64,000 nucleotides of DNA from Gemmatimonadota bacterium (GCA_965116475.1 OZ220691.1:3136001-3200000); one strand, 5' to 3'. Shown: positions 33,421 through 33,891, counted from the stretch's first letter. Translations and numbers: made by a program. The notes: generated by a model from the letters alone, not told the origin.

Positions 33421-33891
33421 GTGTCCGAACCGTTTTATACAGCCCGCGCGCGTCTCGAGAAGGTCGAGGGCGTCCATCGCCGGGCCCACCTCGAAGAGGG
33501 GACCGAGATCGACTTCGGCGTCCACGGACCCATCAAGTCCCACTACCGGATCGACGCGAAGGACCTCCCGCTCCCCGTCGACTACCAGGTGGCCGCGACC
33601 GGCGCCTGAATGCTGGGCACGCTCAACGGCGCACTGGAAGTGCGCGGCATCCGCCTGGCCCCCGAAGACATCACCGCCGAAGCGGAGGGGATCAACCGCC
33701 TCCGCGACCGCATGCCCACGCTGGAGGAGATCATCGTCCACTACCGGCTCCGCATCCCCGCCGAAACCCGGGAGACGGTGGAGCGCGCGCTCGCCAGCCA
33801 CGGCGCGAAGTGCCCCACCGCCCGTTCGCTCGAGGGTGCGATCAAGGTGACGTGGACCGCCGACATCGAAGAGACACCGGCCCGGTCGTGA
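33421..33891 (+). CDS. OsmC/Ohr-family peroxiredoxin-like selenoprotein (in-frame UGA = Sec63)
   Basis: GTG start after a GGGGG RBS. Reads ...PVDYQVAATGA-[TGA 33607-33609]-MLGTL..., where UGA sits at the first catalytic Cys position of the OsmC family; the second Cys is in KCPTARSL. Both halves are in the same frame and a SECIS-like hairpin follows. Confidence 0.85.
33610..33650 (+). promoter_or_regulatory. Putative bacterial SECIS element
   Basis: Perfect stem GCGCACT(33629-35)/AGTGCGC(33639-45) with a GGA loop 26 nt after UGA; lower stem ATGCTG/CGGCAT. Confidence 0.75.

Follow-up and report, generated by a model that had tools for sequence, protein, structure and literature searches.

Does an in-frame TGA in the middle of an OsmC-family gene end translation or specify selenocysteine (Sec)? 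The question is raised by positions 33421-33891 of a 64,000-nucleotide (nt) stretch of DNA from a Gemmatimonadota bacterium (GCA_965116475.1 OZ220691.1:3136001-3200000; the whole stretch is called the window here, and positions are counted from its first letter). Two open reading frames (ORFs) on the + strand, 33307-33609 and 33610-33891, lie in the same frame with a lone TGA at 33607-33609 between them. An earlier reading of the sequence, referred to here as the original prediction, took them to be a single gene starting at GTG 33421 and encoding a 156-amino acid selenoprotein. Re-reading the sequence showed this layout to be correct: readthrough of the TGA gives a 156-amino acid product with Sec at residue 63 (U63), in the context ...AATGA-U-MLGTLNGAL..., and a cysteine at residue 131 (C131), within KCPTA. 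The Sec reading itself is supported by a conserved TGA/Cys pair at residue 63, a covarying hairpin downstream of the TGA and Sec machinery in the same genome. We therefore conclude, with high confidence, that 33421-33891 is a genuine Sec-encoding OsmC-family gene, in which the TGA is predicted to direct Sec insertion.

The residues found at position 63 in homologues were examined using protein and genome searches. A protein-database search gave 697 matches at E <= 0.001. Among the best 120 of these 697, most were pieces of 89-123 amino acids covering the C-terminal 51-60% of the query, some of them named 'OsmC family protein' and derived from Candidatus Palauibacter or Gemmatimonadota genomes. 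The matches listed also included 19 full-length homologues (152-161 amino acids, 50-65% identity), with Cys at position 63 in 17 of the protein sequences; P0003 has Gly instead, and P0020 has Trp. An automatic gene caller may have produced the Gly and the Trp by translating TGA under genetic codes 25 and 4, respectively.

Genomes were searched in six frames, reading through stops, for 41 relatives and for a 301-genome sample of the phylum (E <= 1e-10); all tallies over the 301 genomes take in one genome (G193) flagged as unpublished. Matches were detected in 27 of the 41 relatives, and 49 of the 51 matches listed contain a TGA, the two others being a C-terminal fragment that falls short of residue 63 (G017) and a weak match of 20.8 bits (G021). 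In the phylum sample, 84 of 301 genomes matched, and every match listed contains a TGA. The matches fall in two groups, orthologues with 54-99% identity and a second group with ~31-45% identity. The genome studied here also carries a member of the second group, a paralogue located outside the window (G000:C1:1724159-1724608, + strand; 498-962 of locus L048). This gene has 155 codons, is ~33% identical and contains one in-frame TGA at the same Cys-aligned codon, followed by its own version of the hairpin described below (GCGCGCU/AGCGCGC).

From a subset of the matches we extracted 93 loci, 41 made by tool and 52 taken as regions picked by hand across the identity range. The codon aligned to residue 63 is TGA in all 93. 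A pattern scan with one genome per species yielded 77 loci, some from genomes labelled Ca. Eisenbacteria or Acidobacteriota, with TGA in 76 and TGC in one, while a metagenome scan yielded 64 loci, with TGA in 61 and TGC in one of the 62 that were evaluable. The counts from these locus sets are not independent, because some contigs recur, so that the sets overlap, and because the genomes are related. The original prediction had looked to homologues for Cys or TGA at this position, and this is what the protein and nucleotide sequences contain. Given that the TGA is kept at the aligned codon across genomes, it is not a sequencing error.

We also compared nucleotide differences among close orthologues on the two sides of the TGA. 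For this analysis, extracted loci of 68% identity or more were taken (32 loci) and one with an indel or frame shift (L062) was removed, leaving 31 loci and 30 distinct sequences. Pairwise differences fell in the third codon position in 10631 of 16753 cases upstream of the TGA and in 12809 of 22024 cases downstream. There is thus coding constraint in one frame on both sides of the TGA, and the two ORFs are one gene. The start is also shared: in most of the 30 orthologues, an AGGAG-like motif is found at an equal distance before a GTG, ATG or TTG start at the same codon, the exceptions being L035 (genome G014), which has GTA, and a few orthologues without an AGGAG-like motif. We also noted an extra TGA, TAG or TAA within the matched span for L035 and several of the phylum-sample matches, which may reflect matches that extend beyond the true stop, or the use of another start.

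Downstream of the TGA, the original prediction had described a perfect 7-base pair (bp) stem, GCGCACT/AGTGCGC, starting 19 nt after the TGA and capped by a GGA loop, above a weaker lower stem. The upper stem and its loop are exact in the sequence. The lower stem, ATGCTG/CGGCAT, which has one base (33645) in common with the upper stem, is present but is not conserved beyond close relatives: the share of paired cells is 82.5% in a set of 32 sequences and drops to 68.9% in the set of 83. For the lower stem of the minimum-free-energy fold, 57.7% of cells were paired. As the pairing is not conserved, both lower stems were rejected as parts of the element. Within the window, there are 12 perfect hairpins with a 7-bp stem and a 3-nt loop per strand, three of which on the + strand have a GG-initial loop. 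Among the 537 TGA triplets on the + strand, one is followed by a 7-bp hairpin with a GG loop starting 10-30 nt downstream, and this is the TGA of U63.

Conservation of the hairpin was assessed for the 60 nt from the TGA onwards, for which the 93 loci give 83 distinct sequences. All seven pairs form in 80 of the 83; L098 and L099 differ in sequence at this site, and L100 has six pairs and a UGGGU loop. The apical loop is GGA in 79 sequences, GGC in three and GGG in one. In the alignment, standard pairs occupy 98.1% of 581 cells; shifting the 3´ arm by 1-3 columns lowers this to 14.6-70.4%. Changes on both sides of a pair were found in 33 cells, and the observed covariation score was reached by none of 500 shuffles. 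Compensatory changes occur at three pairs. Pair 27/35 is A-U in 51 sequences, G-C in 29 and G-U in one, and pair 26/36 is C-G in 77 and U-A in four; the wider locus sets add G-C and G-U at pair 26/36 as well as a flip from G-C to C-G at pair 23/39.

Since the stem sits in the codons for G-A-L-E-V-R, this covariation is between a synonymous and a replacement site. The couples formed by the Ala codon and the Val/Ala codon are GCA+GUG (50), GCG+GCG (26), GUG+GCA (3), GUA+GUA (1), GCG+GUG (1) and GCC+GCC (2, the two exceptional loci), and the mismatching couple GCA+GCG was seen in none. At the hairpin site, 50 of 79 Ala codons are GCA, versus 38 of 560 elsewhere in the segments. The rate of synonymous differences is 0.075 in the six hairpin codons versus 0.276 in codons 64-70 and 0.224 in codons 77-90, and synonymous differences are thus 3 to 3.7 times fewer in the hairpin codons than in the flanks. 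Collectively, these data establish that the hairpin is a conserved RNA structure, both conserved and covarying in the distinct sequences compared.

A Sec-encoding gene implies selA, selB, selD and tRNA-Sec elsewhere in the genome, as the original prediction had pointed out, and all four were found in this genome, a single contig of 3.62 Mb that is 96% complete. The scores for selA (491 bits, cut-off 267.9), selB (372.6 bits, cut-off 242.25) and tRNA-Sec (79.7 bits, cut-off 47; reported by ARAGORN as tRNA-SeC with anticodon tca) are above the curated cut-offs. The selD gene, which lies outside the window (G000:C1 ~176319-177246, - strand), is itself of the Sec type, reading ...SHGAG-U-ACKLG..., and 12 nt after its TGA (177216-177214) begins a hairpin with an 8-bp stem, capped by GGA as in the OsmC-type gene. 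Across the phylum sample, selA was found in 241 of 301 genomes. All 84 carriers of the OsmC-type TGA gene have selA, and none of the 60 genomes without selA carries the gene; we attach no formal statistical test to this co-occurrence, because the lists were compared by eye and the genomes are related. In the mechanism that we propose, SelB in complex with Sec-tRNA(Sec) would bind the GGA-loop hairpin and deliver Sec to the ribosome at the UGA in place of termination.

Several observations weigh against this reading. Selenium incorporation, in this protein as in its orthologues, is a prediction. The folding energy of the region, -22.3 kcal/mol, gave no signal relative to 200 shuffles (z = -0.11); shuffled sequence folds equally well in DNA with 70% G+C, and folding energy was therefore dropped as evidence for the hairpin. 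An Rfam scan at E up to 10 gave three weak matches at 33828-34000, all with E >= 8, none of which overlaps the hairpin. Part of the hairpin conservation is at the protein level, because the stem lies in codons of a conserved peptide. In L098 (G287) and L099 (G123), which are 43-45% identical, the TGA is kept and GGAGCCCUGGAAGCCAGA replaces the canonical stem, so that the selenocysteine insertion sequence (SECIS) of these loci, if any, must be different or shifted. A small TGA subclade with the peptide GALAVR has a 6-bp stem and the loop UCGCC instead of GGA.

The DNA of Cys-form loci and the state of selD also need to be considered here. Two TGC loci, L188 and L197, were available from the two collection scans, and both have CUC in place of the CUG of nearly all TGA loci, and hence no GG loop. 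L197 has lost the stem as well; L188 still forms seven pairs. With a sample of two, the Cys forms provide a hint at most on hairpin decay and were given no weight as a control. The selD gene is in two frames in the assembly owing to one extra base in a G/C run (~1499-1504 of locus L002, in which the TGA is at 1744-1746). In five of five relatives, selD is a single frame with one TGA. Among contigs of two public sequencing runs, both contigs of run X22 spanning the site (depths 20.3 and 15.1, together the full 35.4) and one contig of run X1 are without the extra base, and no difference is listed at the selD TGA. Because these independent contigs do not have the extra base, the frameshift is probably an assembly indel or a strain variant, with the caveat that the contigs may come from related strains.

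What the selenoprotein does was approached from its family and predicted fold. The Pfam OsmC family (PF02566) matched residues 49-145, spanning the TGA, with 49 bits (gathering threshold 27.5), while the C-terminal half alone scored 33.6 bits and the N-terminal 62 residues gave no match. An AlphaFold2 model built with a 20-sequence alignment has a mean predicted local distance difference test score of 95.7 and a predicted template modelling (TM) score of 0.88. The top Foldseek match was 2ONF (TM-score 0.78 by query length and 0.86 by target length). Matches with probability 1.00 and similar scores include entries titled putative OsmC, Ohr and OsmC as well as 1ML8 ('structural genomics'), and for the matches listed the TM-score by query length ranged from 0.63 to 0.78 and sequence identity from 11 to 21%. 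As modelled, the product is a protein with the OsmC/Ohr superfamily fold. The fold search was dropped for subfamily assignment, given that Ohr, OsmC and putative OsmC entries and 1ML8 score alike. A profile comparison with solved structures gave chain 1UKK ('Osmotically Inducible Protein C') as the best match, with E = 4.5e-4, and weaker matches to 2OPL, the organic hydroperoxide resistance protein chain 6D9N and 1LQL. Both Cys residues of 1UKK align, with U63 and C131, and the 'CP' of 1UKK corresponds to C131-P132. Residues C131, P132, R20 and D54 are invariant in the alignment of full-length homologues.

Given that the gene encodes a selenoprotein, family membership suggests, with moderate confidence, that the product is a selenol/thiol peroxidase of the OsmC/Ohr type. 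As in OsmC/Ohr, the selenol of U63 would attack a hydroperoxide and become oxidised; C131 of the C-P motif would then resolve it by forming a selenenylsulfide, which a cellular reductant would reduce to regenerate the enzyme. In OsmC/Ohr thiol peroxidases, one catalytic Cys lies in the long helix and the other in a C-P motif, and the peroxidatic and resolving roles are assumed to be distributed over U63 and C131 as over these two Cys. Sec peroxiredoxins and glutathione peroxidases usually have their Sec at the peroxidatic position.

A less probable alternative, which we consider possible and by no means negligible, is that the protein is a genuine selenoprotein without peroxidase activity, with U63 and C131 acting in another selenol-thiol redox reaction or in sulfur or selenium transfer; such non-peroxidase roles are reportedly suspected for uncharacterised branches of the OsmC superfamily. 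The points that count against the assignment as a peroxidase are several. The curated subfamily cut-offs were missed for OsmC (TIGR03562, 14.2 versus 85.8 bits) and SACOL1771 (TIGR03563, 17.4 versus 166.15 bits), and Ohr (TIGR03561) is not among the NCBIfam matches listed for the protein. The fold search scored Ohr, OsmC and 'putative OsmC' entries about equally with 2ONF and 1ML8, which are uncharacterised structural-genomics entries, and D54 is an Asp at the position of an acid residue of 1UKK, the second Glu of its 'PEEL' motif. No redox partner was found family-wide within the 1.5-kb flanks of 39 loci; a 69-amino acid ORF downstream is present in 16 of the 39, all from close relatives. On the other side, both OsmC Cys positions are kept and R20 is invariant, and the best sequence match among solved structures is an OsmC, 1UKK. 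We retain the peroxidase assignment as the probable one.

It is very improbable that the TGA is a true stop, leaving either a pseudogene or two small genes with a 93-amino acid C-terminal piece, starting at ATG 33610, as the sole OsmC-like product. The case for it comes mainly from annotation. As the original prediction had anticipated, the gene is split in public records, where just the 93-amino acid C-terminal half is called, and in close relatives this piece is named 'OsmC family protein'; an ATG directly follows the TGA, and the C-terminal piece passes the Pfam cut-off by itself. Such a piece, however, would comprise only half of the fold, without the first catalytic residue. In addition, many loci have CTG or CTA rather than ATG directly after the TGA, same-frame coding constraint and a conserved start are found upstream of the TGA, and the TGA is kept at the Cys-aligned codon down to ~33% protein identity, in the second paralogue too. 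Equally improbable is a reading of the UGA as Trp, Gly or Cys without selenium, through code reassignment or a suppressor tRNA: it could draw on the Trp and Gly homologues, which may themselves be TGA under other genetic codes, but among 52 tRNAs the UCA anticodon is found in tRNA-Sec alone, tRNA-Trp has CCA and TGA is the ordinary stop of the OsmC-type gene, selA, selB and a neighbouring oxidoreductase gene, which argues against a reassigned code, and both the confinement of the gene to selA genomes and the conserved hairpin at the expected place speak against it as well.

The relationship between the Sec and Cys forms was examined in a tree. A FastTree phylogeny of 229 distinct proteins (208 with Sec, 19 with Cys, one with Gly and one with Trp) placed Sec at the root with at least eight state changes, a placement that is tentative because the tree was midpoint rooted without an outgroup. 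The tree tentatively suggests that the Cys forms are derived from Sec. The related genes come mainly from Gemmatimonadota, and also from genomes labelled Ca. Eisenbacteria and Acidobacteriota. A broader scenario, which we put forward as a possibility that is rather doubtful in its entirety, is that they form a distinct, phylum-wide OsmC clade composed of two anciently diverged paralogues, with ancestral Sec and a compact 7-bp GGA hairpin; ~98% of loci would have Sec, Sec would be nearly obligatory and the few Cys forms would be secondary reversions. If this scenario were true, the SelB of the group would recognise a minimal GGA-loop hairpin, with the loop as in the SelD gene of the same genome, and one of the commonest selenoproteins in these bacteria would be systematically overlooked by current curated models and selenoproteome censuses.

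The features of the locus are collected in Table 1.

Table 1. Features of the OsmC-type gene and its surroundings, with coordinates in the window.
Feature	Position	Strand	Details and basis
Probable ribosome-binding site, GGGGGA, purine-rich	33410..33415	+	5 nt 5´ of the GTG start; sequence and orthologue motifs
Predicted OsmC-domain selenoprotein gene, complete	33421..33891	+	156 codons plus terminal TGA stop (33889-33891); translation, Pfam, AlphaFold model, third-position substitutions
In-frame UGA, predicted to be read as selenocysteine U63	33607..33609	+	First conserved Cys position of the OsmC family; homologue alignments
Lower stem, 5´ arm	33610..33614	+	Pairs with 33646-33650; local to close relatives, not part of the conserved element
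SECIS-type hairpin	33629..33645	+	7-bp stem 33629-33635/33639-33645, apical loop GGA 33636-33638; codons G-A-L-E-V-R
Codon of Cys131, invariant C-P motif, presumed resolving Cys	33811..33813	+	Protein alignment; 'CP' of chain 1UKK

Among the neighbouring genes, the 69-amino acid ORF mentioned above (33906-34112, + strand) starts 14 nt after the stop of the OsmC-type gene and has no Pfam family above cut-off (DUF2007, 13.9 versus 25.7 bits). DUF885 and symporter neighbours reflect genus-level synteny. A gene for a pyridine nucleotide-disulphide oxidoreductase (Pyr_redox_2, 171 bits) is located 2 kb downstream on the opposite strand (35911-36873, - strand), beyond the 1.5-kb flanks of the neighbourhood comparison. 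By sequence, its product may be thioredoxin-reductase-like and is a possible candidate source of reducing power.

Selenoproteins of the OsmC kind have been in print since 2005, and the gene described here is thus of a known kind rather than a new kind of system, and unsurprising as such. In its published text, the Sargasso Sea survey of 2005 reports an 'OsmC-like protein' selenoprotein family with three sequences, assigned to COG1765 (YhfA), with the motif UxxT and a SECIS figure (PMC1088965). The 2008 GOS survey gives five Sec sequences with pfam02566 and the same motif (PMC2398784), and the family is also listed in reviews from 2022 (PMC9312934) and 2026 (PMC13188914). The bacterial SECIS is described as a stem-loop that directly follows the UGA and has a small, G-containing apical loop (PMC1088965), and the 7-bp stem with its GGA loop, 19 nt after the UGA, agrees with that description. 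Among the papers surveyed, we found none naming this Gemmatimonadota OsmC clade; the word 'gemmatimonad' is absent from the main texts of PMC13188914, PMC13326102, PMC12013277 and PMC9312934, and supplements, BSepDB or deep-Sep tables may list the clade.

Like the members of the published family, to the extent that these are described in the surveys, the protein combines an OsmC domain (pfam02566) with Sec assigned from a TGA/Cys pair and a hairpin just after the UGA. Unlike the published UxxT motif of COG1765, the motif here is U-M-L-G-T, with the Thr at +4 rather than +3, a comparison made by the printed motif only. The best NCBIfam match is NF041052, 'OsmC-related (seleno)protein', which covers residues 48-147 across the Sec site. 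Its cut-off of 95 bits was missed by the protein (21.1), the paralogue (14.5) and two Cys-form relatives (31.1 and 25.6). These misses place the protein in a separate Sec-bearing OsmC clade outside the curated NCBI model, and they fit the public names of close relatives, which cover the C-terminal half only. As these names cover just the 93-amino acid half, protein databases lack the catalytic residue together with half of the fold, and a curated model for the clade would correct hundreds of genomes.

Two further comparisons place the protein among characterised systems. With the OsmC/Ohr thiol peroxidases of solved structure (among others 1UKK, 1QWI/1NYE, 1N2F and 6EB4), it shares the predicted fold, at a Foldseek probability of 1.00, and the alignment of both Cys positions; it differs from the solved proteins in its low identity (11-21%), in falling below the subfamily cut-offs, in the predicted Sec in place of the first Cys and in having Asp54 for a Glu of 1UKK. 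With the Sec-type SelD of its own genome, the gene shares an in-frame TGA and, after it, a hairpin capped by GGA, while the protein family is unrelated, and the stem sequence and the UGA distance (8-bp stem, 12 nt, in selD) are different. The gene provides a compact, well-supported example of a SECIS, in which covariation is visible within a conserved coding segment, and, as two paralogous copies, it adds a predicted Sec-dependent enzyme of the antioxidant type to the selenoproteome of a poorly studied phylum.

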